Shown here: one piece after another, positions 6,502-54,056 of the stretch
How positions within the stretch are numbered: the stretch's first letter is position 1
How the letters are laid out: the number at the start of each line of letters is the position of its first letter
Source of the DNA: Vicinamibacterales bacterium
GTDB lineage: Bacteria; Acidobacteriota; Vicinamibacteria; Vicinamibacterales; CAVVIG01
Length of the DNA: 64,000 nt
Direction of reading: 5' to 3'
Assembly (NCBI GenBank): GCA_036004865.1
Contig: DASYQZ010000097.1
Span: 4,606-68,605 of the forward strand
Notes under the pieces: model-generated
What the model was told of the DNA's origin: nothing
The model's database searches: none
Seen by the model: only the letters and a program-made list of their open reading frames with translations
Position numbers and translations under genes: made by a program

Positions 6502-6657
6502 GATTGCAGATTGCAAATTGCAGAATGCAGATTGATTGCAGATTGCTGATTGGATTGTGCGGCTGTGCCGGACAGTCCGCAATTCGAAAATGCAATCTGC
6601 AAATCCCAATCTGCAATCAATCTGCAATCTGCAATTTGAAATCTGCAATGTACAATT
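6502..6657. repeat. palindromic tandem-heptamer array: (GATTGCA)n, a spacer, then (TGCAATC)n
   Basis: Left arm 6502-6557, right arm 6591-6657. The outer roughly 46 nt of the arms are reverse complements with 3 mismatches. The central spacer is itself a small hairpin. Confidence 0.9.
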
Positions 6658-8836: not shown

Positions 8837-9556
8837 TTACATGTCAGAGTGAAGTCTGAGTTCACTCCGACCTCGCTCCGACTTCATTCCGACTCGTGTC
8901 GGAGTGAACTCTGACTTGAGTACGACTACGCCTAGCCGCTCGTGCCGCGACTCGTCCTCAACCGGGTTCGGCTTCAGTGTCGTCCAGCAGTTGCGAACGC
9001 TGTCCAGGTCCGCATCCGGGAGGGGATCAGCGCAAATCGCACGATGCGCCGCGCGGCGCTCTTCGTCGGTTGCGCCGAGTCCCAGATAAAGCTCGTGCGG
9101 GACGAGCCACTCGATCACCGCGCCAAGTCCATGCGCGCGGTAACTTGACCAATAATGCGCGTCCGGCGTCGCAACCATGCCCGCTCGCACGGGGTTCTGT
9201 TCGACGTACCTCAAACAAATGAGCCACTGCCGCTCATCCAGGAGGTGTTTCGCGCGATATCGACCCTCCCAGATGGTGCCCGTCCGACCGTACTTGCGAT
9301 TGAAATAACGGGTGTATCGCTCACCCAGCTGCTTCATCGCGCCGGCCATGGCCGTCTCGCTGTTGGGCGTCGCGATCAGATGGTAGTGCGTCGTCATCAC
9401 GACGAACGCGTGGACGGACGCGCCGTGGCATTCAGCTGCGGCTGCGAGGATCCTCAAGAAGACGTCACAATCTGCGTCTTGCGTGAAGATACCCATCCGG
9501 TTGTTCCCGCGGTTGTAGACGTGTGCGCTCACCTTCGGAAGATAGATTCGTCGCAT
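8837..9556 (-). CDS. REP-associated tyrosine transposase (RAYT; IS200/Y1 HUH family)
   Basis: HUH motif in VVMTTHYHLIATP. Catalytic Tyr region GTIWEGRYRAKHLLDE, plus YVEQNPVRAGM. The last roughly 25 codons are read out of the flanking inverted repeat, so the true C-terminus is uncertain. Confidence 0.8.
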   Translation of the reverse strand: MRRIYLPKVSAHVYNRGNNRMGIFTQDADCDVFLRILAAAAECHGASVHAFVVMTTHYHLIATPNSETAMAGAMKQLGERYTRYFNRKYGRTGTIWEGRYRAKHLLDERQWLICLRYVEQNPVRAGMVATPDAHYWSSYRAHGLGAVIEWLVPHELYLGLGATDEERRAAHRAICADPLPDADLDSVRNCWTTLKPNPVEDESRHERLGVVVLKSEFTPTRVGMKSERGRSELRLHSDM

Positions 9557-9767
9557 GTGAACCCCCGGCGATCAGTCTCAGCAATATCTGGTCTCAGCGA
9601 GATGCCAACGAAACTCGCGTGCTCGGTCGAACACGAGGCAGTTTCTGCCAACGCGACTTAACCGATCCGACGTGCCCGTAAGTCGTACTGAAGTCAGAGT
9701 TGAGTCAGAGTGAACTCCGACTCGAGTCGGACTTGAGTCGGAGTGATGTCGGAGTGAAGTCGGACTC
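8845..9767 (-). mobile_element. RAYT gene bracketed by roughly 90-bp imperfect terminal inverted repeats built from REP-like hairpins
   Basis: The reverse complement of 8845-8930 aligns with 9677-9767 (cgta(a)gtcgtact[c/g]aagtcagagtt..cactccgac..gagtcgg..). The arms contain palindromes such as CCGACTCGAGTCGG and begin with CGTAG / CGTAAG. Confidence 0.75.
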
Positions 9768-13475: not shown

Positions 13476-13606
13476 GCGCCTGCGGCCATGCCTCGCGGTC
13501 TGCCGCGAGGCATCAGCGACAGGTCGCGGCGACTTGGCGGGGTCCCCAACGCGGCAGCCGCGTTGGGGTGCCCGTGGGGCCCCGCCGCCAGTGCAAAGAA
13601 GTTAGC
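13476..13606 (+). repeat. dispersed hairpin repeat family F1, copy A (longest)
   Basis: GCGCCTGCGGCCATGCC at the 5' end and GCCGCCAGTGCAAAGAAGTTAGC at the 3' end. It contains a 10-bp hairpin at 13489-13512 and an 11-bp hairpin, CCCCAACGCGG-cag-CCGCGTTGGGG. Confidence 0.85.
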
Positions 13607-13610
13607 GGGG

Positions 13611-14394
13611 GTGTGTGGCCGCGAGAGAGCAAGAGCCGTCGGCGTGATACTCCTCACAGTCCTGTTGTCTGTACCGCGAGCACCAAGCGGCGCCGACAAC
13701 GCGCGCCAGATCGTCGAAGAAGCGCAGAAGCGCACTGGCGCGAAGTCGCATCGCTACGAAGGGCTGCTGCAGGTGTTCGACTCGAAGGGCAACATCGGCG
13801 ACAAGCGCTGGACGTTCGAGCGGCTCGGCGCGCACGGCAACAGCAAGGCGGTCCTGCGATTCACCGCTCCCGCCGAGGTCAAGGGCGTCGCGCTGCTCGT
13901 CGTCAACCACCCGGATCGCGCGTCCGATCAATGGATGTGGACGCCGGCGCTCGAGCGCGATCGCCGGATCGCGCTGCAGGATCGCTCGACGCGGTTCTTC
14001 GGCACCGACTTCAGCTTCGAGGATCTCGAGGAGCGCGATGTCAACCAGTACGACTACACCCTCGCCGGGCGAGGAGCCGGTTGACGGCGCTGCATGCTGG
14101 AAGATCCAGTCGACGCCGAAAGAGTCCAAGTCGTCGCAGTACACGCGATCGATTGTCTGGATTCGCAAGGACACGTACTCCTTCCTGCGGATCGACAACT
14201 ACATCAATGATCAGACGGTGCGCCGGCTGACGTACCGCGACTACCAGAACGTGCAGGGCATCTGGACGGCGCGGCAGCTGGAGATGGCCGATCTTCGACG
14301 CGGCAGCCGCACGCGCCTGACGCTCGACAAGCTCGCCTACAACGTTCCGCTCAAGGACGAAGACTTCACGCTGCAGGCCATCCGCAGGCAATGA
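13611..14394 (+). pseudogene. LolA-like outer-membrane lipoprotein-sorting protein, split by a +1 frameshift at the G-run 14067-14069
   Basis: The first frame reads ..FEDLEERDVNQYDYTLAG then RGAG-stop. The second frame continues EEPVDGAACWKIQSTPKE..RIDNYINDQ... Removing one G from CCGGGC restores ..DYTLAGEEPVDG... The putative start is GTG 13611, just after repeat F1. Confidence 0.6.
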
Positions 14395-15723: not shown

Positions 15724-15754
15724 TTTTCGCGCTTTCGTGTTTTCGTGGTTGCAT
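15724..15754 (+). repeat. family F3, copy 2
   Basis: tttcgcgctttcgtgttttcgtggttgcatt, lying between the barrel gene stop and the MBL hydrolase start. Confidence 0.85.
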
Positions 15755-15780
15755 TTGAGTTGGCTGACCGCCGAGCTGCC

Positions 15781-18038: not shown

Positions 18039-18103
18039 GCAACCACGACAACACGAAACCACGAAAAAGACCAATCGTGCTTTCGTGTTTTCGTGGTTGC
18101 ATT
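18039..18103. repeat. family F3, inverted pair (hairpin)
   Basis: gcaaccacgacaacacgaaa (18039-18058) is the reverse complement of tttcgtgttttcgtggttgc (18081-18100) at 19 of 20 positions. Confidence 0.85.
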
Positions 18104-18137
18104 CCACGCGGGAGCCGCATGTCGGCGTTGATGTAAA

Positions 18138-23731: not shown

Positions 23732-24340
23732 CTACGTGTTCGGTTTCTTGAGTTTTTCGCCCGCGCGAACCGGGATCTTCAAACGGTTCTCTGACGGTGG
23801 AATCGGACATTCGTACGTCGGGTTGAAATAGCAGTACGGGTGATACGCGCGGTTGAAGTCCACCTTGTAGATCCCGGTCGCCGTGCGATCGAGATCCATG
23901 TAGCGCCCGCCGGGATAGGTTTCGGTGACGCTCGTCAGATCGTTGAACGGCACGAACAGTCGATCGAGCGTGCGCGTGTCGGCCTCGACGAACGCCGTCA
24001 GCTTGAGCGGCTGCCCCTTGAGCGAGAATTCCAGCGTGCCGACGCGCCGCATGTTCCGCTGCGTGCCGGTCGACGTTGGCATTTCCATGACCGATCGATC
24101 CTCGATCGTTTTGAGCTGGGCCGGCACGTCGTAGTCGGGATCGATCGGAAAGTACGCGAGGGGGAGAAACTCCGCGAGCTTCGCCTTGGGTATTGGACCG
24201 TCTGCCGTCTGAAACAGTGCATCCTTCGCCGCGCGATCGGCCGCGACCTTGACGGCGTAGTCCTTGGCTTCGGGGGGCGGGGGAGCTGAACAAGCGCCAA
24301 TCGATAGGCTCAGCACTATTCCGATCAGCCAGCCGCTCAT
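23732..24340 (-). CDS. DUF1684-family lipoprotein
   Basis: ..YPGGRYMDL..GIYKVDFNRAYHPYCYFNP.YECPIPP.EN. Signal and lipobox MSGWLIGIVLSLSIGAC. Start trimmed to ATG 24340 because the upstream extension is repeat F1. Confidence 0.75.
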   Translation of the reverse strand: MSGWLIGIVLSLSIGACSAPPPPEAKDYAVKVAADRAAKDALFQTADGPIPKAKLAEFLPLAYFPIDPDYDVPAQLKTIEDRSVMEMPTSTGTQRNMRRVGTLEFSLKGQPLKLTAFVEADTRTLDRLFVPFNDLTSVTETYPGGRYMDLDRTATGIYKVDFNRAYHPYCYFNPTYECPIPPSENRLKIPVRAGEKLKKPNT

Positions 24341-24365
24341 GCTTTCTCGCGACGCCTGCGCCCTG

Positions 24366-24456
24366 TCAACTTTTTTGCACTGGCGCCGGGGGCCCACCCC
24401 CGGCGCGAGCTGTCGCTGATGCGTCGCGGCGGACCGCGACGCATGGCCGCGGGCGC
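24366..24456 (-). repeat. family F1, copy B
   Basis: The reverse complement reads gcgcccgcggccatgcgtcgcggtccgccgcgacgcatcagcgacagctcgcgccgggggtgggcccccggcgccagtgcaaaaaagttgac. Confidence 0.85.
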
Positions 24457-28894: not shown

Positions 28895-31243
28895 TCAGTT
28901 CCTCAGCGGCTTGCCGGTTTTCAACGTGTGCTGGATCCGTTCCAGCGTCTTCCGCTCGCCGCACAGCTTCAGAAACGCTTCGCGCTCGAGGTCGAGCAGG
29001 TACTGCTCGCCAACCGTCGTCTGGTGCGGCAGCGATCCGCCGGCGAGCACGTTCGCGAGCGCGCGGCCGACCACGGCGTCGTGGTCGCTGATCCGGCCGG
29101 CGCGCCACGCGAGATGGACGCCGAGCTTCAACGCCGCGAGCACGTTCTCGCCGCCGACTGGAATCGCCGTGCGCGGCACAGAGCGCTGATAGCCTTCGCG
29201 CACGCGTTCGAGCGCAAATTCCTTCGCGTCGTCTATCAGCCGGTCGCGGTTCATCGTGATGCGATCGGCGTCGGTGAGGAAGCCGAGCCGCCTCGCGTCG
29301 GCGGCGCTGGTCGAGGCCTTCGCGAATCCGATGGTCTCGAAGACGCGCTGCACGAACGGCAGCAGATCGGTCTGAGGGCCCGGCACGACATGGCTTCCAG
29401 CCACCGCTCGCGCGAGCAGTTCCTTGCAGCCGCCGGCCGCGGGAATCAGCCCCACGCCGACTTCGACCTGACCGATGTAGCTTTCGGCCGCCGCCTGCAC
29501 GCGATCGCCGTGGAGCACGATTTCGCAGCCGCCGCCGAGCGTCAGGCCCGCGGGCGCGACGATGACCGGCACGTCGGCGTAGCGCAGCGCCATCGTCGTG
29601 TTCTGGAACGTCCGAATCATCAGGTCGATCTCGTCCCAGTTGCCTTCCTGCGCTTCCATGAGCAGCAGCATCAGGTTGGCGCCGACGGAGAAATTCTCGG
29701 CTTCGGTGAAGACGACCAGCGCGGCGAAATTCGCGGCCGCTTCCTTGACGCCCGCCTGCAGCATCTGCACGGTGTCGCCGCCGATCGCGTTCATCTTCGA
29801 GTGGAGCTCGACGGCGAGCACGCCGTCGCCGAGATCGACGAGGCTTGCGCCGGCATTGCGCTTGACGATCTTTTTTTCGCGGCCCTGCCGCCTCTGCGCC
29901 TCCGGCGCTTCGGCGAGCCTGGCCGAAGCTCGCCCGTCATCTTGGCGAGCGGAGGCCGGGACGGGCCGCGCAACGACGGTCACCGTGTCGTGCAGCCGCG
30001 AGGCGGCCCTTTCATCCCTCGACGAGCTCGGGATGCCCTGAGCGTGTCGACGGGCAGGACCGCCAACCGTTTCGACGACGGTGTCGTTGACCTCGTTGGG
30101 GCCGAGCGCTTCGAGCGTCTCGAACGGTCCGAGCGCCCATCCGAAGCCCCACTTCATCGCGCGATCGACATCGTCGTTCGAATACGCGATGTCGGGCGCG
30201 ACGCGCGCCGTGTAGAGCAACGTTGGCCCAAGCGTCTCCCGCAGAAACTGTCCGACGTTGTCGTTGCCGAAGAACAGCGTTTTGATCCGCTGACCCGGGT
30301 CCTCGATCGATCGCGCCGCGTCGAGGGACGGGAGTCGGGCGGACTGCTTCGGCCGATAGGTCAGCGTCGCGGGATCCAGCGTGAGGATCTCGGATCCTGA
30401 CTTCGTTTTTTCCCGCTTATAGAATCCCTGCCCCGCCTTCTCGCCGACCCATCCGCGCTCGACGAGCGAGCCGACGAGCGGCGGCACCGGCAGATTCAGG
30501 TTCTTCGCGACGTGCGCCAGCACGTCGATGCCGACGATGTCCGCCGTACGAAAGGTTGCGCTCTTCGGCCGGCCGAGCGCCGGACCTGTGATGGCGTCGA
30601 TTTCCTCGATCGTGTACCGGCCCGACTCGAGCGCGCGCAGCACCTGGACGACGCCGTACACGCCGATGTGATTCGCGATGAAGTTCGGCGAGTCCTTCGC
30701 AATCACGACGCCTTTGCCCAGCCGGTGATCCGCGAACGACGAGACGCGATCGACGACCGCCGAATCGGTGCCGGCTGCGGGAATCACTTCGAGCAGGTGC
30801 AGGTAGCGGGGCGGATTGAAGAAGTGCGTCCCGAGCCAGTGGCGCCGGAAATCGTCGGTGCGCCCCTCCGCGAGCGCCCCGATTGGGATGCCCGACGTGT
30901 TCGACGAGACGATGGTGCCCGCCCGCCGGACGCGGTCCACTTTTTCGAGCAGCGCACGCTTGACGTCGATCTGCTCGACCACGGCCTCCATGATCCAGTC
31001 GACGCCGGCGACGCGCGCGAGATCCGAGTCGAAGCCGCCGGTCGTGATGAGCGCCGCGGTCTCCGGTGTAAAGAACGGATCGGGCTTGAGCGCTCGCGCG
31101 CGCTTCAGCCCTTCGCGCGCGACGTCGGGGGTGAGATCGAGGAGCAGCGCCGGGACGCCGGCGTTCGCGAAGTGCGCCGCGATCTGCGCGCCCATGGTGC
31201 CGGCGCCGAGGACTGCGACCGATCGAATCGATCCGGATGTCAT
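28895..31243 (-). CDS. bifunctional 3-hydroxyacyl-CoA dehydrogenase / enoyl-CoA hydratase (FadN/FadB-like)
   Basis: N-terminal VLGAGTMGAQIA Rossmann motif. C-terminal crotonase region ..FSVGANL..PAGLTLGGGCEI. The interdomain linker carries repeat F2. ATGA overlap with the TetR stop. Confidence 0.9.
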   Translation of the reverse strand: MTSGSIRSVAVLGAGTMGAQIAAHFANAGVPALLLDLTPDVAREGLKRARALKPDPFFTPETAALITTGGFDSDLARVAGVDWIMEAVVEQIDVKRALLEKVDRVRRAGTIVSSNTSGIPIGALAEGRTDDFRRHWLGTHFFNPPRYLHLLEVIPAAGTDSAVVDRVSSFADHRLGKGVVIAKDSPNFIANHIGVYGVVQVLRALESGRYTIEEIDAITGPALGRPKSATFRTADIVGIDVLAHVAKNLNLPVPPLVGSLVERGWVGEKAGQGFYKREKTKSGSEILTLDPATLTYRPKQSARLPSLDAARSIEDPGQRIKTLFFGNDNVGQFLRETLGPTLLYTARVAPDIAYSNDDVDRAMKWGFGWALGPFETLEALGPNEVNDTVVETVGGPARRHAQGIPSSSRDERAASRLHDTVTVVARPVPASARQDDGRASARLAEAPEAQRRQGREKKIVKRNAGASLVDLGDGVLAVELHSKMNAIGGDTVQMLQAGVKEAAANFAALVVFTEAENFSVGANLMLLLMEAQEGNWDEIDLMIRTFQNTTMALRYADVPVIVAPAGLTLGGGCEIVLHGDRVQAAAESYIGQVEVGVGLIPAAGGCKELLARAVAGSHVVPGPQTDLLPFVQRVFETIGFAKASTSAADARRLGFLTDADRITMNRDRLIDDAKEFALERVREGYQRSVPRTAIPVGGENVLAALKLGVHLAWRAGRISDHDAVVGRALANVLAGGSLPHQTTVGEQYLLDLEREAFLKLCGERKTLERIQHTLKTGKPLRN
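29896..29962. repeat. dispersed hairpin repeat family F2, copy 1 (inside the FadB-like linker)
   Basis: gcgcctccggcgcttcggcgagcctggccgaagctcgc..ggcgagcggaggccgggac. The core palindrome is GCTTCGGC-gagcct-GCCGAAGC. Confidence 0.85.
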
Positions 31244-32760: not shown

Positions 32761-32771
32761 AGTTAATTCGC

Positions 32772-32839
32772 CATCTTTTTTGCACTGGCGGCGGGGCCCC
32801 CACCCCCCGCGCTGGGGGCCCCGGCATGGCCGCAGGCGC
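32772..32839 (-). repeat. family F1, copy C (short form lacking hairpin 1)
   Basis: The reverse complement reads gcgcctgcggccatgcc-ggggcccccagcgcggggggtgggggcccc-gccgccagtgcaaaaaagatgg. Confidence 0.8.
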
Positions 32840-34805: not shown

Positions 34806-36977
34806 TTAGTATCTCGCGGTTTGACGTATGGCCTTCAGCACGTCAGATGACTGAGGAAGGATCGCTTCCTCGAGGTCCGGACAGTAGGCCACCGGCGCAT
34901 CGAGCGCGCCGACCCGCTTCACCGGCGCGTCGAGATGCTCGAAGAGCTCGCCGCCGATCCGCGCGGCCAGCTCGGCGCCGAAGCCGCACGTCAGTTGATC
35001 CTCGTGCGCGACGACGACGCGGTTCGTGCGCTTGACGTGTGTGGCGATCGTGTCCCAGTCGTACGGAGCGATGGTCCGGAGATCGAGCACCGCGACGCTG
35101 ATGTGATCTTTCTCGGCCTGATGCGCGGCGACCAGCGTCCGCTGCACGAGCGCGCCCCAGGTGACGACGAGCACGTGGTCCCCCTCGCGCCGCAGGCTCG
35201 CGCGGGCGAAAGGAATCATGAACTCTTTCCCGGGGTACTCGCCCTTGTTGTACGTCTGGCGGTACAGATGTTTGTGCTCGAGGAAGAGGACCGGGTCGTC
35301 GCACCGGATCGATGTGCGCAGCAGGCCCGCCGCGTCGACGGCATTCGAGGGAAACACGATGCGGATGCCGGGGCAGTGCGCGAAGATGCTCTCGCCCGAC
35401 TGGCTGTGATATGGTCCGCCGCCGCGCAGATAGCCGCCGATCGGCGTCCGGATGACGATCGGGCACTTCCAGGTGTTGCCCGACCGGTACCGCATCATCG
35501 TCAGCTCGTCGCGGATCTGCATCATCGCCGGCCAGATGTAGTCGAAGAACTGAATCTCGACCACCGGCTTCAGCCCGCGCGCCGCCATCCCGACGGCCCG
35601 GCCGACGATGCTCGCTTCTGCGAGGGACGAGTTGAAGACGCGATCGTCGCCGAACATCCGCTGCAGGCCGTGCGTCAGCTTGAAGACGCCGCCTTTGCCG
35701 GGGACGACCGGCAGCGCCTCTTTCTTGCTCGCGTCGGCGACGTCCTCGCCGAAGACGACGATGCGCGCGTCGCGCGTCATTTCGTCTTTCAGCGTGCGGT
35801 TGATCGCCGCGACGACCGTGTCCGGTTTGCCTTCGGGCTGCGCCGGCGTGTCGAATGCAGACGAGCAGGGGTCGACGTCGGGGGAGTACACCCAGAGCGT
35901 CGCGCTGTCTTTCGATGGTTTGGGCGCGGCGAGCGCCTTCGTCGCCGCTTCGTTGACTTCCTGCTCGACTTCGGCCGCCATCTCGGCCAGCGTCTCGTCG
36001 GAGGCCAGACCGTTCTGTTTCAGGAACTCGGCGAACCGCTTGATCGGATCGCGCCGGGCTTCCGCCTCGCGTTCCGCCGGCGGCTTGTACAGCTTCTCGT
36101 CGTCCGACAGCGAGTGGGAATACGGACGAATGACCTTCGCGTGGACGAACGCCGGACCTTTGCGCGCGCGGACGTAGGCGGCCGCCTCGCGCATCGTCCG
36201 AAGGCTCTCGAAGAAATCGGTGCCGTCGATCGACTCGACGAACAGTCCGGGGAACGATCGCACGAGCTTCGAGATGTCGCCGCCTGCCGTCTGCACTTCG
36301 ACCGGCACCGAAATCGCGTAACCGTTGTCCTCGACGAGGAACAGGACCGGGAGATTCTTGGCGCACGTCGTGTTGAGCGCCTCCCAGAATTCGCCCTCGC
36401 TCGTCGCGCCTTCGCCGAGCGAGACGTACGTGATCTCGTCGTCGCGCGATCGCTCGCGGCGATCCGGAATCTGCGGCACGCGGCTGTAGATGACGCCCGC
36501 TTCCGCCGCGCCAACGGCGTGGAGCACCTGCGTGCCGGTGGGACTGGAGCCGCTGATGATATTCAGTTTGGTGCTGCTCCAGTGCGAGGGCATCTGCCGG
36601 CCGCCGGAATTGGGGTCGTCCTTGGCGCCGACGGCGGCGAGCAGCATGTCGAGCGGCGTCATCCCGAGCTGCAGGCACAGCGCGCGATCGCGATAGTACG
36701 GACAGAACCAGTCGTAGCCGGGTCTCAGCGTCAGGCCCGCGGCCACGAGGACCGCTTCGTGGCCGGCGCCGCTGATTTGAAAAAAGATATGACTCTGATT
36801 TTTGAGCTGGATTTCCTTGTCGTCGAGCTTGCGCGACAGGAGCATGCAGCGATGGACGGCGAGCAGCTGGGCCGGAAGCAGGTCCAACTCTACACCGCTC
36901 GATTGACTCGCGGCGCTCGATTGACTCGCGGCCGGGTGCGCCCCCACGCTGCTGCCGTTGACAGCGGTCGCTTTCAT
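34806..36977 (-). CDS. fused alpha/beta E1 component of a 2-oxoacid (branched-chain-type) dehydrogenase
   Basis: 723 aa. The TPP-binding alpha part has ..[15 protein letters not shown]... The beta part has ..VFGEDV...GGVF..T.GL. and ..[15 protein letters not shown]. Confidence 0.85.
36897..36932. repeat. perfect 18-bp tandem duplication in the 5' end of the E1 gene
   Basis: gctcgattgactcgcggc x2, encoding [12 protein letters not shown]. Confidence 0.9.
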
Positions 36978-37514: not shown

Positions 37515-37574
37515 GTAGCGCAGGCCTTCAGGCCTGCCAACAGCCGGCCGGGCAGCCCTGAAGGGCTGCGCTAC
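37515..37574. repeat. GTAG-type REP doublet (REPIN-like) between convergent genes; probably a bidirectional terminator
   Basis: GTAGCGCAGGCCTTCAGGCCTGCC, an 11-nt spacer, then GGGCAGCCCTGAAGGGCTGCGCTAC. Each arm is also a perfect 7-bp hairpin on its own. Confidence 0.75.
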
Positions 37575-40285
37575 TCGTCGCGCAGCGCGACCATCGGATC
37601 GAGGCGCAGCGCGGTCAGAGCCGGAACGATCGCGGCGAGCGCCGCTGCGGCGAGCAAGGCGAGAACCGTGGCCGTGAACGTGATCGGATCGATGGGGCTG
37701 ACGCCGAAGAGCAGCGCGCGAATGAGGTGACCGCCGGCCGCGGCAAGCAGCAGGCCGATCGCGCCGCCGGCCGCCACCGGCCTGAGCCCCTGCCCGACAA
37801 TCATCCGGAGTAAATCCGTTCGATTCGCACCGAGCGCGACGCGAATGCCGATTTCGCGCAGCCGCCGGCTGACGGAGAACGCGACGACGCCGTAGAGACC
37901 GCTGCAGGCCAGAACGAGGCCCATCAGGCCGAGCGCGGCGGCCGCCGCCGCGGCGATTCGGACCGGCGATAGCGCGAGGCGAACGTTCTCTTCGATCGAC
38001 TTGATCGAGACGAGCAGGTTTGGATCAGCCTCCGCCACGCGGGCGCGCAGCACGCTGACCACCGCCTCGGTGCGGCCGTCGTGCGCGATGAGCAGCCTGC
38101 CTTCCATGAAGCCGCGGATCGGCGTGTAGACCTTCGGACGGATCCGCCGGTCGACGGCGATGCCGCTCGTCGTCGCGACAACGCCGACGATTTCGTCGTC
38201 GCCGTCCTCGTCGCGGCCGAGGCGCACGAACCGGCCCAGCGGATCGGCGTCGCCGAATCGCGCGCGCGCGAATCGCTCGTCGACGACCGCGGCTCGCGCC
38301 CCGCGCCGCACGTCGTCGAGCGTGAAGCCGCGCCCGCGCAGGACGGCGACGCGCATCGTCTTGAAGTACTCGCCGCCCACCTGCTCGCATGCGACGTCGA
38401 ACCGCTCGGACGGCCGGCCGTCGGCGCCGATCGTCCTGGCGCGCATGCCGCAGCCGCCGAGCAGCGGATCGTTGACCGTCATCGATACGCCGACGACGCC
38501 CGCGCTCTGCGCGACGGCGTCGCGAAGGTTCATCAAGAGACGGCCGGCCGGTTCCGCCGTGTATTGCTCCTGCTGAAGGTTGAACGACGCAATCAGCACG
38601 TTGTCGGCGCGTTGACCGAGATCCATGCGCAGCGCGCGATCCAGACCGCGCACCAGCAGCCCCGCGTTCACGAGCAGGACGAGCGTGATGGCCGTCTGGC
38701 CGGCCACGAGCGCGCTTTGAAGCGGGATGCGCCATCCCGGCAGCGACCGGATGCCGCGCTCGGTCTTCAACGCAGGCGTCAAATCCCTGCGAATGAGCCG
38801 GAGCGCAGGGACGCTCCCGAAGAACAGACTCGTCGCGAGCGACACGGTGAGCGTGTAGGCGACGATCCACCAGTCGGGAGAGAGATCGATCTGGTGTCCG
38901 GTCATGGCGCTCTTGGGCACCGACGCGAGGACGAAGCGCGCGGCGGCCTGCGACAACATCAGGCCGATCACACCGCCGAGGGCGCCGATGACCGCGCTCT
39001 CGGTGAGGAACTGCCGCAACAAGCGCGCGCGGCCGGCGCCGAGCGAGACGCGAATCGCAATCTCGCGCCGCCGTCCGAGACCGCGCGCGAGCAGCATGTT
39101 CGCGACGTTCGCGCAGGCGATCAGCAAGACGAGGGAGACCGCGAGAAACGCGATCGCCATCACCGGCGCGCCGTTCTGCATGATCATCGGATAGTTGAGA
39201 AACGCGCCCGGCGACACGACGACGGTCGCCGTTCGATCGGGATTGTGCGGCAGCAGCGACTGCTGGCCGAGCACCGAGAGCTCGGCGCGCATCGCCGAAT
39301 CGGAGACGCCGGGTCTGCGCCGCGCGAGGATTTGAATCCAGCCGAACGTCGGCTCGTCGATCAGCATGCCGCCGGGCCGCGTAATGGCCTGCATGGTGTA
39401 GGGGAGCCACACGTCCGGCGTGACGACGAGCGGTCCCGTCGCGTCCGCGTCGGCAACGCCGACGATCGTGAACGGCGTCCGATTCAGGTTGACCGTTCGG
39501 CCGACGACGTCCTGTGCGGCGCCGAACTGTTGTTGCCATGTTGCCCACGACAACACGACGAGCGGCGCCGATCCAGGCGTCTTCGTTTCGTCGGCCGTGA
39601 AGAACCGGCCGAGCGCCGGCCTGGCGCCGATGAGCGGCAACAGGTTCTCGGACACGAGCTGAGCGCGAAGCTGTCCGCCCGCGGCGCACGTGCAGCTCAA
39701 TGACGCCTCGGCGACTGCCGCGAGATCGGCGGTTCGCGACTGCGATCGCATGAACACGAACTCGGGGAACGAAACGAAGTACGGAGTGCCATACGTGCCG
39801 CGCGAGCCGCCGCCGCGCGTCGACATGAAGACGTTCCGGATGGTGCCCGGATCCTTCACGGGCAGCGGGCGGAGCACGAGTGCGTAGACGAGCGTCACGA
39901 GCCCCGCGTTGACGGCGACGCCGAGCGCGATGGCGACGATGGCCGTCGACGCGAACACGGGCGTGCGCCGGAGACTGCGCCATGCGTACGTCAGATCGCG
40001 CGCCAGATCGTCGACGAGCGCCAACGGCCGCGCATCGCGGATTTGTTCCTTGTACTTGTCGACGCCGCCGAATTCGAGGCGCGCGCGGCGCTCGGCGTCG
40101 GCCGGGTTGAGGCCGCGGCGTACGTGATCGTCGATCCGGCTCCTGAGGTGAAACGCGAGCTCCTCGTCCAGGTCGCGTTCGAAGCGATGTCCCGCCTCCG
40201 CTCGCTCACCTCTCGAGCGAGCTTCGGCGAGGCTCGCCGAAGCGCCGGAGGCGCGAAGGCGGCGGCGGCGAAACAGGCGCCACAT
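37571..40285 (-). CDS. ADOP-family permease (duplicated FtsX domains) with a PadR-associated N-terminal prefix domain
   Basis: MWRLFRRRRL..ERDLDEELAFHL..GLNPADAERRARLEFGGV..DLTYAWRSLRRTPVFA. Two FtsX blocks (RRREIAIRVSLGAGR, RLREIGIRVALGANR). ATG 40285 lies 2 nt after the PadR stop. Confidence 0.85.
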   Translation of the reverse strand: MWRLFRRRRLRASGASASLAEARSRGERAEAGHRFERDLDEELAFHLRSRIDDHVRRGLNPADAERRARLEFGGVDKYKEQIRDARPLALVDDLARDLTYAWRSLRRTPVFASTAIVAIALGVAVNAGLVTLVYALVLRPLPVKDPGTIRNVFMSTRGGGSRGTYGTPYFVSFPEFVFMRSQSRTADLAAVAEASLSCTCAAGGQLRAQLVSENLLPLIGARPALGRFFTADETKTPGSAPLVVLSWATWQQQFGAAQDVVGRTVNLNRTPFTIVGVADADATGPLVVTPDVWLPYTMQAITRPGGMLIDEPTFGWIQILARRRPGVSDSAMRAELSVLGQQSLLPHNPDRTATVVVSPGAFLNYPMIMQNGAPVMAIAFLAVSLVLLIACANVANMLLARGLGRRREIAIRVSLGAGRARLLRQFLTESAVIGALGGVIGLMLSQAAARFVLASVPKSAMTGHQIDLSPDWWIVAYTLTVSLATSLFFGSVPALRLIRRDLTPALKTERGIRSLPGWRIPLQSALVAGQTAITLVLLVNAGLLVRGLDRALRMDLGQRADNVLIASFNLQQEQYTAEPAGRLLMNLRDAVAQSAGVVGVSMTVNDPLLGGCGMRARTIGADGRPSERFDVACEQVGGEYFKTMRVAVLRGRGFTLDDVRRGARAAVVDERFARARFGDADPLGRFVRLGRDEDGDDEIVGVVATTSGIAVDRRIRPKVYTPIRGFMEGRLLIAHDGRTEAVVSVLRARVAEADPNLLVSIKSIEENVRLALSPVRIAAAAAAALGLMGLVLACSGLYGVVAFSVSRRLREIGIRVALGANRTDLLRMIVGQGLRPVAAGGAIGLLLAAAGGHLIRALLFGVSPIDPITFTATVLALLAAAALAAIVPALTALRLDPMVALRDE
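40189..40254. repeat. family F2, copy 2 (inside the ADOP N-terminal prefix; opposite orientation to copy 1)
   Basis: The reverse complement reads gcgcctccggcgcttcggcgagcctcgccgaagctcgc..gagcgagcggaggcgggac. Confidence 0.85.
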
Positions 40286-40287
40286 GG

Positions 40288-40674
40288 TCACACCTCCTCG
40301 GGTTTCGCACGGAGCGCGGTGCCGATCGCGGCCACGAGCCGCTCCCACCATTCGGTTTCTTCACGGAGACGCTTCCGTCCGGCAGCGGTCAGCCGGTAGT
40401 ATTTGGCTCGACGGTTGTTGTCGGACGTGCCCCATTCGGTCGCGACGAGGCGCTGGCGCTGGAGGCGATACAACGCAGGATAGAGGGCGCCCTGCTCGAT
40501 CGCGAGCGCGTCGCCGGTGATCTGCTCGATTCTGAGGAGGATGCCGTAGCCGTGCAGCGGCCCGAGAGAGATCGCCTTCAGGATGAGCAGGTCGAGCGTG
40601 CCCGGCAGCAGTTCCGCGGCGTTGTCCACAGGGTCCACAGGGTCCACAGGGTCCACCGTGTCCCTCGGGGCCAT
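40288..40674 (-). CDS. PadR-family transcriptional regulator
   Basis: LDLLILKAISLGPLHGYGILLRIEQ..GALYPALYRLQRQRLV...RRAKYYRLTAAGRKRL. Confidence 0.9.
   Translation of the reverse strand: MAPRDTVDPVDPVDPVDNAAELLPGTLDLLILKAISLGPLHGYGILLRIEQITGDALAIEQGALYPALYRLQRQRLVATEWGTSDNNRRAKYYRLTAAGRKRLREETEWWERLVAAIGTALRAKPEEV
40624..40668. repeat. in-frame 9-bp tandem repeat in PadR codons 5-19
   Basis: gtccacagg x3, then gtccaccgt and gtccctcgg. Encodes (DPV)3 on the minus strand. Confidence 0.9.
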
Positions 40675-49340: not shown

Positions 49341-50401
49341 ACGCGCTCCGATCGGCCACCCCAACGCGGCTGCCGCGTTGCGGACCCCGGCGCGTCGCGC
49401 GGGTCGAGGTACTGCCCGAGGTTCTGGCGATAGAACTCGACCGTCCGCCGCAAGCCCTCGGCGAGCGTGATCGCCGGCCTCCATCCGGTCGTGCGTGTGA
49501 ATTTCGACGAATCGGTGTAGATGCTGCCGATGTCAATCGCAATCTTCTCGGGCGGCCAGTCCACGTACTCGACGCGTCCCGATCCCGCGACGTCGATGAG
49601 CAGCGACGTCAATTGACGGTGGCTGATCGCCTCGTCGCCTCCGACGTTGAACGCCTCGCCGTTGACGGCGTCGCTCGCGCCGGCGCGCAGAAACGCATCC
49701 GCCGCGTCGTCGACGAACACGAAGTCGCGTAGCTGCGAGCCGTCGCCGTAGATCTGGATCGTCGCGTCTTCGATCGCGAGCCGAATGAACCACGCGACGA
49801 AACCCTGTCGATTGTGTTTGATCAGCTGACGTGGCCCGTAGACGTTCGTGAGCCGCAGCGAGCAGGCGCGCACGCCAAACACATTGTTGTACACAAGGTG
49901 GTAATACTCGCCCGCCGCCTTGTTGATGCCGTTGACGTCGGTCGGCCGCACGAGGTGCGTTTCGTCGACCGGCAGCGAGCCGGGCTTGCCGTAGACCTGC
50001 CGCGTGCCGGCGAACACGACCTTGACGCCGGGATTGTGATTGCGGCACGCCTCCAGCACCGTCAGCTGGCTGCGGCAGTTGATTTCCAGATCCGTGTACG
50101 GATCCCGCATGCTGTCGATGTGGCTCACCTGTCCGGCGAGATTGAAGATCACGTGGCGATCGCGCACCAGATAGTTCATCGTCGACTGCTGGCGGATGTC
50201 GGCGACGTTCACGCGCAGGCGATCGGCGATGCCGTCGATGTTGAACAGGTTGCCGCCGTAGTCCGGGATGAGCGAGTCGACGAGCAGCACGTCGGCGCCC
50301 AAATCGACGAGTACGCGCGCGAGGTTGCTGCCGATGAATCCGAGGCCGCCGGTGATCATCACACGACGGCCGCGGTAGAACTCGCGGTAGTCCACCGTCA
50401 C
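49337..50401 (-). CDS. NAD-dependent epimerase/dehydratase (SDR)
   Basis: ITGGLGFIGSNL and the ..YYHLVY../..INKAAGE.. catalytic region. GTG 50401 forms a GTGA overlap with the upstream GT2 stop. The last roughly 20 codons are repeat-derived. Confidence 0.85.
   Translation of the reverse strand: MTVDYREFYRGRRVMITGGLGFIGSNLARVLVDLGADVLLVDSLIPDYGGNLFNIDGIADRLRVNVADIRQQSTMNYLVRDRHVIFNLAGQVSHIDSMRDPYTDLEINCRSQLTVLEACRNHNPGVKVVFAGTRQVYGKPGSLPVDETHLVRPTDVNGINKAAGEYYHLVYNNVFGVRACSLRLTNVYGPRQLIKHNRQGFVAWFIRLAIEDATIQIYGDGSQLRDFVFVDDAADAFLRAGASDAVNGEAFNVGGDEAISHRQLTSLLIDVAGSGRVEYVDWPPEKIAIDIGSIYTDSSKFTRTTGWRPAITLAEGLRRTVEFYRQNLGQYLDPRDAPGSATRQPRWGGRSERV
49361..49398 (-). repeat. isolated hairpin module of family F1
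   Basis: ccaccccaacgcggctgccgcgttgcggaccccgg matches the inner hairpin of copy A (13545-13575) in reverse complement. Confidence 0.75.
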
Positions 50402-52853: not shown

Positions 52854-53912
52854 TCAGCCTTCGCCGTTCGCGGACTCCATCAATCGTTGCACCACGCCAT
52901 CCCAGGTGATCGACCGGGCGCGATCGTACCCCGCGTCGCCGAGGCTTCGAGCGCGCGCGCGGTCGGCCGCGAGTCGCGAGATGCCGGCTCCAAACGATTC
53001 GGGCGTCGGCTCGGCAACCAGGCCGTTCACGCCGTCTTCGACGAACTCCAGCGGACCGCCGGCGTCGCCGGTGGTGACGACCGGTTTGCGCGCGAGAAAC
53101 GCCTCGAGCGTCACATAGCCGTAGTCCTCGTCGAACGGCGGAAAGACGACCCCGAGCGCGCCGGCGTACAACCGTACCAGGTGCTCGGCGTCGACGCGGC
53201 CGGCGAACGTGACGCGATCGGCGACGCCTGCGGTCACCGCCGTTTCGGCGAGCTGTTCACGCAGCGGACCCTCGCCGACGACGAGGAGCCGGACGGCGCG
53301 ATCGGCATGCGCGAGCGCGCGAATGATCAGATCGACGCGTTTGTTCGCTTCGAGCCGGCCGACCGACAACACGTAGTCGCCGTACGGACCGGCGCGCAGC
53401 GCGCCGGCAAGCGGCGGCGGGTGATAGAGCGGTTCGGCCGTGATGCCGTTGTAGCGTTCGAGCCGCGCCGCGATGGTGCGCGCGATGGTGAAGAGCCGCG
53501 CCGACTCCGTCAGCATCTCCCGATCGAGCGCGATGAGCGTATCGCGGAGCCGCACGTCCGCTTCCTCGTGCGTGAACTCGCTGTACGGCGTGCCGCACAA
53601 ATCGTAAATCGGGCGGTGCTGGTGGCAGAGCCAGGTCACTTTGTTTGGATGGCGCACGAAGTACGTCGGGAATTTCGTCGCGATGACGGTGTCGATGCGC
53701 GTGCCGTTGGTCTCGGAGAGATCGACGAGCCGCCAGGCCGCCGCCTGCGCGAGCAGCTCCGCTTTCGGATACCACTTGAACGGAATCGACACGCGCTCGG
53801 CGCGGTACCCGTGGCGCCGGAGCTCGTCGACGAGGCTGCGCACGAGCAGTTCGGCGCCGCCGTGCACGAACGGCACCTGAGCCTCGCACACGAGAACGCT
53901 ACGACTCGGCAT
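52854..53912 (-). CDS. family 4 (GT-B) glycosyltransferase
   Basis: ..VGRLE.NKR.DL...A......L.VVGEGP.. and ..EDYGYV.LEAF...KPVV....GGP.EFV.DG.NG. Confidence 0.85.
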   Translation of the reverse strand: MPSRSVLVCEAQVPFVHGGAELLVRSLVDELRRHGYRAERVSIPFKWYPKAELLAQAAAWRLVDLSETNGTRIDTVIATKFPTYFVRHPNKVTWLCHQHRPIYDLCGTPYSEFTHEEADVRLRDTLIALDREMLTESARLFTIARTIAARLERYNGITAEPLYHPPPLAGALRAGPYGDYVLSVGRLEANKRVDLIIRALAHADRAVRLLVVGEGPLREQLAETAVTAGVADRVTFAGRVDAEHLVRLYAGALGVVFPPFDEDYGYVTLEAFLARKPVVTTGDAGGPLEFVEDGVNGLVAEPTPESFGAGISRLAADRARARSLGDAGYDRARSITWDGVVQRLMESANGEG

Positions 53913-54056
53913 CTGGTAATCGGGTAATCGGGTAATCGGGTAATCGGATTGTGCGATTGCACCACATCGTCGTTGTCGAGGCCATCACGGATTCATCGCG
54001 GCCCAATCCAGCAATCAATTACCCGATTACCAGATTACCCAATTACCAGATTCACC
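53913..54056. repeat. palindromic tandem-octamer array: (GGGTAATC)4, a roughly 70-nt spacer, then (GATTACCM)4
   Basis: The left arm (53913-53949) and right arm (54017-54056) are reverse complements at 31 of 34 aligned positions. The inner edge of the left arm is GGATTGTGCG, identical to 6552-6561. Confidence 0.9.

Follow-up and report, generated by a model that had tools for sequence, protein, structure and literature searches.

Selfish palindromic repeats that lie within protein-coding genes have been known since the work of 2000 on the Rickettsia palindromic elements (RPEs; Ogata et al. 2000, 2002; summarised in PMC10969869 and PMC2229807). RPEs measure 105-146 bp and come from Alphaproteobacteria that are AT-rich and obligately intracellular; of the copies in the original description, almost half are located in open reading frames (ORFs) (PMC10969869, PMC2229807). 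Here we describe F2, a short GC-rich palindromic repeat that occurs twice, each time in frame within a different protein-coding gene, in a stretch of 64,000 nucleotides from a Vicinamibacterales bacterium (assembly GCA_036004865.1, contig DASYQZ010000097.1, positions 4,606 to 68,605 of the forward strand); this whole stretch is referred to below as the window. Vicinamibacterales are among the most abundant soil bacteria and, to our knowledge, their repeat content is essentially undescribed.

F2 shows RPE-like behaviour, i.e. it is multi-copy and dispersed, has a stable palindromic fold, and lies in frame in unrelated genes for which insert-free orthologues are available (about 15 further hosts). 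Both kinds of element are dispersed palindromes found in intergenic DNA as well as within unrelated conserved genes, at sites compatible with the protein fold, and both are read as tolerated selfish DNA. F2 differs from the RPEs in being 54-72 nt long and 76% GC, in its free-living soil Acidobacteriota hosts, in the share of its copies that are genic (∼10%), and in how it is read, namely in either orientation and, for the family as a whole, in each of the three frames. Homology with RPE-1 to RPE-10 is not expected given the Acidobacteriota host and the 76% GC content, and the comparison was made by description.

A second group for comparison is formed by the intragenic GTAG/CGTC-tagged repetitive extragenic palindromes (REPs) of Opitutus terrae, Thauera and others (Di Nocera et al. 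2013, PMC3733652). Like F2, these are small GC-rich palindromes, mostly intergenic, with G:T pairs in their stems, and some copies lie in genes, where they code for 20-30 amino acids, or at the N-termini of ORFs (PMC3733652). In its intergenic contexts, too, F2 is distributed much as REPs are in general (PMC3733652), and its orientation is mildly biased. However, a classical REP is one hairpin of 20-40 nt that ends in a GTAG or CGTC tag, often with a linked gene for a RAYT (a Y1 transposase), whereas F2 is a compound unit of three or four helices and 54-72 nt, its copies in the window are untagged, and no RAYT was seen, with one inverted pair of copies (locus L101) examined.

[quoted passage not shown] MITEs and F2 are alike in being non-autonomous and in having terminal inverted repeats within a long stem, which in F2 is the 10-bp outer stem. 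MITEs are 100-170 bp long and typically have TA or other target-site duplications and a recognisable parent insertion sequence (IS); in contrast, there is no target duplication in the single clean pair of filled and empty F2 sites, that of copy 1. IS1397 and ISKpn1 are autonomous IS3-family elements that insert in the loops of REPs, or palindromic units. F2 resembles them in its apparent entry into the apical loop of a GC-rich hairpin and differs in being a 72-nt non-coding unit. F2 is a new member of the palindromic repeats that are tolerated in frame inside genes, and it fits no named family. With this finding, a phenomenon already known therefore gains a new phylum and a new type of element, and nothing is overturned; the new details are the element family, the phylum, the clean allele pairs, the covariation of two positions of the unit (34 and 70), a bias towards lengths that are multiples of three (3n), and a probable hairpin-loop target.

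Two F2 units and their empty sites

The two copies were located with a gapped arm pattern (CCGCCTYYGC, 25-55 nt, GSRRAGGCSGG), which matched exactly two sites in the window, of 72 nt each, and none in 100 shuffles. A 29-mer core likewise had two matches in the window, both at these sites, and none in shuffles, and a repeat finder returned the two copies as the longest inverted pair of the window (I1; 80 nt, 83%). A covariance model (R1) built on 56 family members scored both units far higher on their canonical strand (80.2 and 92.3 bits, as listed below) than on the reverse strand (32.4 bits for copy 1 and 50.7 bits for copy 2), and a scan of the 64-kb window with this model gave no convincing third copy. 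The units, and the peptides that they add to their hosts, are as follows:

29888-29959, + strand: copy 1, a 72-nt unit in canonical orientation, antisense to its FadN-like host gene (arm pattern; covariance model, 80.2 bits)
40191-40262, - strand: copy 2, a 72-nt unit in canonical orientation, sense to its permease host gene (arm pattern; covariance model, 92.3 bits)
FadN-like protein, residues 429-452, read from the - strand: peptide of copy 1, PASARQDDGRASARLAEAPEAQRR (codon-aligned)
Permease, residues 8-32, read from the - strand: peptide of copy 2, RRLRASGASASLAEARSRGERAEAG (75-nt insertion relative to orthologues, 40190-40264)

A sequence-only reading of the window had placed the copies at 29896-29962 and 40189-40254; these are the same elements, with boundaries a few bases off. 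Its translations of both inserts were reproduced on re-translation, and it had correctly noted that each protein reads a different strand of the element, because the two host genes share the minus strand and their units are mutually inverted. Neither reading contains a stop or a frameshift, i.e. 24-25 residues are added and both frames stay intact. The units are 76% GC and fold at -43 to -46 kcal/mol, and no terminator-like or promoter-like site was found at either copy. The predicted tryptic peptides include PVPASAR, ASARLAEAPEAQR and LAEAPEAQR for the FadN-like insert and ASGASASLAEAR for the permease insert.

The genes concerned are:

28895-31243, - strand: host gene 1, FadN-type fusion protein of 782 aa (Pfam, NCBIfam)
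37571-40285, - strand: host gene 2, ADOP-family duplicated permease of 904 aa (TIGR03434, 709.8 bits)
40288-40674, - strand: gene for an acidobacterial-type PadR regulator, whose stop lies 2 nt before the permease ATG (TGAccATG)

The first host has the domain order of FadN, with the 3-hydroxyacyl-CoA dehydrogenase first (3HCDH_N and 3HCDH, residues 8-276) and the enoyl-CoA hydratase (ECH) at residues 473-615 (Pfam/NCBIfam). Copy 1 is placed in the linker between the two, the length of which varies from 0 to ∼100 aa among orthologues (alignment A2). A search of PDB sequences matched the dehydrogenase half and gave no full-length FadN-type structure on which to map the linker, and an AlphaFold2 model of the FadN-like protein, made from a 19-sequence alignment, had a mean pLDDT of 42, at which the placement of the insert is unusable.

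Copy 2 follows seven codons after the permease start and separates MWRLFRR from the helix RFERDLDEEL, which is part of the permease prefix domain. The NCBIfam profile perm_prefix_1 aligns permease residues 33-83 with profile positions 9-59, and this offset indicates extra residues near the N-terminus of the permease. Both the TGAccATG junction and the N-terminus MWRLFRR are kept in orthologous loci (the PadR arrangement is also present in L115, L116 and L239), and the copy 2 insert contains no in-frame ATG, GTG or TTG. A start at 40285 is therefore supported, with the element inside the coding sequence; the permease does not start downstream of the insert (beyond 40189), which would have left the element outside the gene. 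An HMMER search with the 32-aa N-terminal peptide, a short and compositionally biased query, against 1.84 billion representative proteins returned two matches, each 97% identical over the matched stretch. Gene callers and homology tools will take such segments for lineage-specific low-complexity inserts or for spurious N-terminal extensions.

The sequence-only reading had proposed aligning both proteins with orthologues, and this comparison supports its proposal of an insertion. FadN-like relatives form a length series of 782 aa (99% identical), 755 aa (97% in the alignment), 737 aa, 728 aa and shorter. The orthologues P0002 (97% identical) and P0003 are without exactly the 72 nt of the unit, and the DNA of the 755-aa and 737-aa orthologues (empty sites L001 and L002) is unbroken relative to the window except for these 72 nt, the gap falling between ...GGCCCGTC and (A/C)AGGGCCGC. 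Directly behind the insert the window has the codon CAG (Q), and the more distant orthologues P0007-9 read QGR here, which suggests that CAG is the ancestral codon. Because this codon is common to the window and the distant orthologues, copy 1 is a clean 72-nt insertion without a duplicated flank. The insert is missing from 17 of the 18 aligned FadN orthologues.

The permease gave a corresponding result. Six orthologues (P0122-P0127; 879 aa, 68-84% identical) read MWRLFRR(Q/N/S/D)RFERD and are 25 aa shorter, and the empty sites L115 and L116 have 75 nt fewer between TTTCGCCGC and CAxCGC. The copy 2 insert is missing from all 15 aligned permease homologues except a 99%-identical one. The 99%-identical proteins P0001 and P0121 carry the FadN-like and the permease insert respectively, the window permease and P0121 having the 25 extra residues, and an identical permease insert is present in an independent JGI assembly (L239) that is 99.8-99.9% identical to the window over 18 kb. 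The empty alleles were obtained from sibling metagenomes within one series, the siblings being JGI 3300036852, 3300036854 and 3300036860. Taken from these sequences, the lineage specificity of both inserts is supported, with empty sites in close orthologues, and the possibility that distant orthologues hold the same residues fails, as the residues are missing there. Filled and empty allele pairs among near-identical natural populations are usable as a strain marker.

A modular repeat family

Further copies were collected by the exact 22-base core GCTTCGGCGAGCCTNGCCGAAGC. At least 112 genome stretches contain it in a scan of one genome per species and, among the genome matches listed, nearly all are titled Vicinamibacterales, Luteitalea or Acidobacteriota/Acidobacteria gp6, several being from one metagenome-assembled genome (MAG). 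The family is carried by roughly 60 MAGs, and a single 3.66-Mb contig, CAWJYM010000004.1, has at least five matches to the exact core. At least 120 metagenome stretches bring the total to more than 230, and the covariance model adds ∼20 diverged copies without the exact core in 705 kb of family loci. The density of ∼1 copy per 30-35 kb is consistent with two in the 64-kb window. The search for further copies that the sequence-only reading had recommended thus confirms a dispersed repeat, mostly intergenic.

The family is modular, consisting of the constant central hairpin GCTTCGGCGAGCCTNGCCGAAGC, the outer stem CCGCCTYCGC/GCGRAGGCSGG and optional side hairpins. The small 5' hairpin (GCGCC-NNN-GGCGC) has a variable loop and is longer in other architectures; units of the 72-nt type have a 3' hairpin (CTCGC-N9-11-GCGAG) that the 57-nt and 60-nt types do without. 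Many family copies are embedded in longer, subfamily-specific flanks (in one subfamily, e.g. at L005, L061, L082 and L112, GTAGCGCG lies directly 5' of the unit, where a REP tag might be looked for; it is not at the window copies). The window copies are flanked by host gene sequence only, and the 72-nt unit is therefore the inserted entity in the window. Rfam 15 gave no match at the gathering threshold in the window, and none on the elements at E up to 1 in eight loci; in the library of papers searched, none has the core sequence and none deals with repeats in Vicinamibacteria. F2 thus seems not to have been described before.

In L101/L148, two mutually inverted copies enclose a pantothenate kinase gene and a biotin-ligase-like gene. 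The idea that this pair forms a REPtron was rejected, since it flanks housekeeping genes and no transposase. At L091 (2827-2849) the exact 23-nt core lies in a HrpB_C helicase domain (LASASLAEAL) without arms or added length, and this site was excluded from the family as a native or chance match on both grounds. It is either chance or a hint at the origin of the core.

Among 56 distinct 72-nt units, a cloverleaf-like model gives standard pairs in 94% of cells, compared with 36-49% when the partners are slid, and the loops are hypervariable while the stems are conserved. Compensatory changes are present in four of the five pairs of the 3' hairpin (hairpin 2) and in two of the three pairs of the 5' hairpin (hairpin 0); in diverged copies the central hairpin (hairpin 1) has GCTACGGCG/CGCCGTAGC in place of GCTTCGGCG/CGCCGAAGC, again in compensatory fashion. 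The outer stem has 10 bp and is 96% paired. It contains a T7:G65 wobble in 45 of the 56 units, and due to this T:G pair one strand folds better than the other.

A further covariation (alignment A3) links position 34, the single variable base of the core, with position 70 in the 3' arm (GGC-N'-GG). The pair is C:G in 144 units, G:C in 24, A:T in four, T:G in one and G:T in two, with five mismatches, and position 2, the nominal outer-stem partner of position 70, is always C. The alternative helix 32-37/67-72 is 99.7% paired. The covariation of positions 34 and 70 therefore indicates a helix that competes with the cloverleaf.

Copies were called intragenic when the periodicity of third-position GC content (GC3) was present on both flanks in the same frame and no stops occurred through the element, followed by a Pfam search. 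By the GC3 test 30 of 205 evaluable unique copies are inside ORFs, and in ∼17-20 independent genic events the element is flanked on either side by Pfam domains or splits one. The validated hosts include two PALP enzymes, MnmG, an amine oxidase, a prephenate dehydrogenase, Lhr, RlmN, a molybdopterin/4Fe-4S oxidoreductase, TamB, LigD (at two sites), an IspDF linker, a PMT_2-TPR protein and LMF1. In a Ser/Thr kinase (L219 5348-7954, + strand) the insert separates the HRD catalytic loop from the DFG motif, and in L125 (370-2574, - strand) a 43-aa insert lies in the region of the LigD OB domain; both of these use a frame other than the Ala-rich one. Several other genic candidates are unsupported or have the element at or before the probable start. 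The family is therefore a natural experiment on the protein sites and peptide frames that tolerate insertions of 18-43 residues, e.g. in a kinase core, a LigD OB domain and RlmN.

Although most DNA in these genomes is coding, ∼8-15% of the copies are genic, which points to strong purifying selection against genic sites or to a target preference against them. Where both neighbours of an intergenic copy could be classified, 46 copies are in sense orientation between co-directional genes, 24 in antisense orientation between such genes, 25 between convergent genes and 15 between divergent genes.

Among 181 units, 85-95% are free of stops in any given one of the six frames, and each window copy has five open frames. 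Of 195 unique units, 155 (∼80%) have an arm-to-arm length divisible by three, as do 122 of 162 once all candidate intragenic loci are removed, and nine of the 12 architectures with at least three members; variants of ±1 are rare, and the copies are not independent. The common lengths (72, 60, 57, 54, 69, 66, 81 and 84 nt) include those of clearly intergenic copies. The excess of 3n lengths is suggestive, though not proof, of a constraint towards frame neutrality. Given 3n length and open frames, the absence of a stop or frameshift in the two window genes is the default outcome and not a coincidence.

The first seven genic cases were all in the Ala-rich frame, and the idea that this frame is used exclusively was dropped when a larger, Pfam-checked census showed a bias and not a rule. 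Among the validated genic events, including the two in the window, 12 use the Ala-rich frame, two to five the second and three the third, an excess of the Ala-rich frame over equal use with p ∼0.002-0.013. This frame reads ASASLAEA in the sense orientation and ASARLAEA in the antisense orientation, the two peptides being near-identical because the core is palindromic.

Target sites and the origin of the inserts

The two copies are best explained, with a probability of about 85%, as recent independent insertions of a non-autonomous, selfish, REP/MITE-like palindromic repeat that is tolerated in frame. The sequence-only reading had called the element "tolerated, or selected"; the empty sites and the census bear out a tolerated insertion of REP/MITE type, and we found no support for a selected peptide. 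Frame preservation does not need selection, because the six frames are usually open and the unit is 3n: any insertion would keep the frame. Both landing sites would tolerate extra residues, the first being a hypervariable linker and the second an Arg-rich cytoplasmic tail seven codons into the permease, and both copies would be read there as a small peptide rich in Ala, Ser, Leu and Glu. Purifying selection would clear most other genic insertions, leaving the ∼10% that remain genic, and the moderate bias towards the Ala-rich frame fits a filter for tolerable peptides.

The target of copy 1 can be read from its empty site, which is a perfect 8-bp hairpin, CGCGGCCC-gtcaa-GGGCCGCG (L001 1577-1597, CGCGGCCCgtcaaGGGCCGCG), with a stability of -12.7 kcal/mol (z -4.1; none of 200 shuffles was as stable). 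In the window the two halves of this hairpin, as given by the empty-site fold, are:

29878-29885, + strand: left half of the target hairpin, CGCGGCCC
29963-29970, + strand: right half of the target hairpin, GGGCCGCG

Copy 1 sits in the loop of this hairpin, and the filled site folds as a cloverleaf on its stem. The hairpin was itself supplied by an older, lineage-specific linker segment that adjoins copy 1 (29960-30046; residues 400-428, HAQGIPSSSRDERAASRLHDTVTVVARPV), which is also palindromic and rich in hairpins, e.g. CATCCCGAGCTCGTCGAGGGATG at 30013-30035. This older segment is present in the window, P0001 and P0002, partly in P0003 and in similar form in P0008; it is missing from P0004-6 and from distant homologues, which read ...LQILKSAKD.... 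No second occurrence of its palindrome CATCCCGAGCTCGTCGAGGGATG was found in the window or among 116 fetched loci.

A linker of LigD in related Vicinamibacterales provides a second case of nesting. L237 has no insert at this linker, L238 has a different palindromic insert (translated GERLRLHRAEDEEIRGEVSASVRAGGG) that ends in the hairpin GCGCCGGGGGTGGGGCCCCGGCGCC, and L114 (1761-3926) has a composite, in which the F2 unit is nested in the loop of the terminal hairpin seen in L238. The L114 composite is bordered by a direct repeat of 7 nt, GCACGGC, which may represent a target duplication of the larger element. Across the family, perfect flanking stems of at least 7 bp are present at 23% of the copies, compared with 1.2% when flanks are re-paired at random. 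Insertion into hairpin loops, seen for copy 1 and for L114 relative to L238, is thus supported, though it is not universal. The unit would enter the loop of an existing GC-rich hairpin, often one that is part of another palindromic repeat, and would do so without a target-site duplication, as in the single clean case of copy 1. Such entry into a hairpin without duplication would suggest mobilisation in trans by an enzyme with hairpin or single-stranded DNA as its substrate, and not classical DDE cut-and-paste.

Several observations weigh against the view that the two copies are tolerated selfish insertions, or limit how far it can be taken. The family was gathered by its exact core and the sample is biased accordingly; the intragenic census rests on the GC3 heuristic and Pfam rather than on gene annotation; and translation of the inserts, though probable from the continuity of the ORFs and from orthology, is a reading of DNA. 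No transposase or other mobilising enzyme was identified, with the one inverted pair in L101 examined. The target of copy 2 is at best a weak hairpin (empty sites, z -1.2 to -1.5), and its boundaries are ambiguous, as the 75-nt insertion adjoins a CGCCGC run. Finally, the covariation, the persistent T:G wobble and the 46:24 orientation bias could reflect a function at the RNA level as well.

A more far-reaching view is that the family is a new kind of hairpin-invading, translation-compatible mobile palindrome, in which the 34:70 pair would be an internal guide defining cleavage, by analogy with the HUH single-strand transposition of IS200/IS605 elements (IS608). The pairing of loop base 34 with base 70, 2 nt from the 3' end, could define the cleavage site, and the 3n architectures and six open frames may reflect lineage-level selection for harmlessness in coding DNA. 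We consider this view speculative and rather unlikely.

If the element were instead mainly a structured RNA, either cis-regulatory or a small RNA, its genic copies would act on, for example, the stability, pausing or processing of the mRNA, with copy 2 as the plainest example. Several helices do covary, the T:G wobble is kept in 45 of 56 units, the canonical strand scores ∼40 bits higher in the model, and co-directional copies are oriented 46 sense to 24 antisense; in the permease gene, the RNA fold of copy 2 has a z-score of -2.8 and a sense hairpin of -46 kcal/mol begins 24 nt past the start codon. However, the copies are restricted neither to one orientation nor to any genomic context, and some lie antisense within genes, as does copy 1, the mRNA fold of which is no better than that of shuffled sequence (z -0.86), and there is no Rfam match. 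The density of ∼1 copy per 30-35 kb, the nesting in other palindromes and the coexistence of filled and empty alleles are hallmarks of a mobile repeat, and a mainly RNA-level role is, in our judgement, improbable.

It is more doubtful still, to the point of being very unlikely, that the inserted peptide is positively selected, i.e. that a domesticated repeat has supplied a useful linker or interaction motif. Such selection would account for the Ala-rich frame in 12 of 17-20 events (p ∼0.002-0.013) and for the fact that both orientations give an ASA(S/R)LAEA core, but purifying selection against Arg/Pro-rich peptides explains the frame bias equally well. Moreover, the other two frames are used in well-supported genes (the IspDF linker, the kinase domain, the LigD OB domain, PMT_2-TPR and LMF1), the inserts are limited to one shallow lineage at sites where length varies freely, and the same linkers gather other, unrelated inserts. 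Lastly, descent of the shared stretch from ancestral coding sequence, a low-complexity match by chance or convergence, and an assembly artefact are all effectively refuted as explanations, since even though the 23-nt core occurs once, armless, as apparently native coding sequence (HrpB_C, L091), the full 72-nt architecture and both arms are common to the window copies where none is expected, orthologues have clean empty sites, and the permease insert recurs in an independent assembly.

Other repeats in the window

An 18-nt tandem repeat, CCGCGAGTCAATCGAGCG (AASQSS if translated), lies at ∼36896-36932, in or at the 5' end of the ORF at 34806-36977 (- strand). It has two copies in the window and at least five in the 99.8%-identical L239, i.e. 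it is an in-frame copy-number polymorphism of near-identical populations.

Other GC-rich palindromic pairs are formed by 13476-13643 with 24328-24456, 13529-13574 with 49353-49398, and 13576-13607 with 32769-32800. They represent other repeat families, with arms that are 32-70 nt long and 74-91% complementary, and the GC3 frame test places every one of them, unlike F2, in intergenic DNA. AT-richer composite repeats are present as inverted pairs in intergenic DNA (8843-8927 and 9682-9766; 6503-6649; 53911-54051), and these are built of short periodic units, namely the ∼11-nt GTCAGAGTGAA/GTCGGAGTGAA, ATTGCAGATTGCAA and GGTAATC/GATTACC.

A 38-nt motif, TTTCGYGNTNTCGTGTTTTCGTGGTTGCATTT, occurs three times in one orientation with 74-87% identity (1876-1913, 15725-15762 and 18073-18110). 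Because two of the three copies are just upstream of coding sequence, the motif may be a shared promoter or operator.

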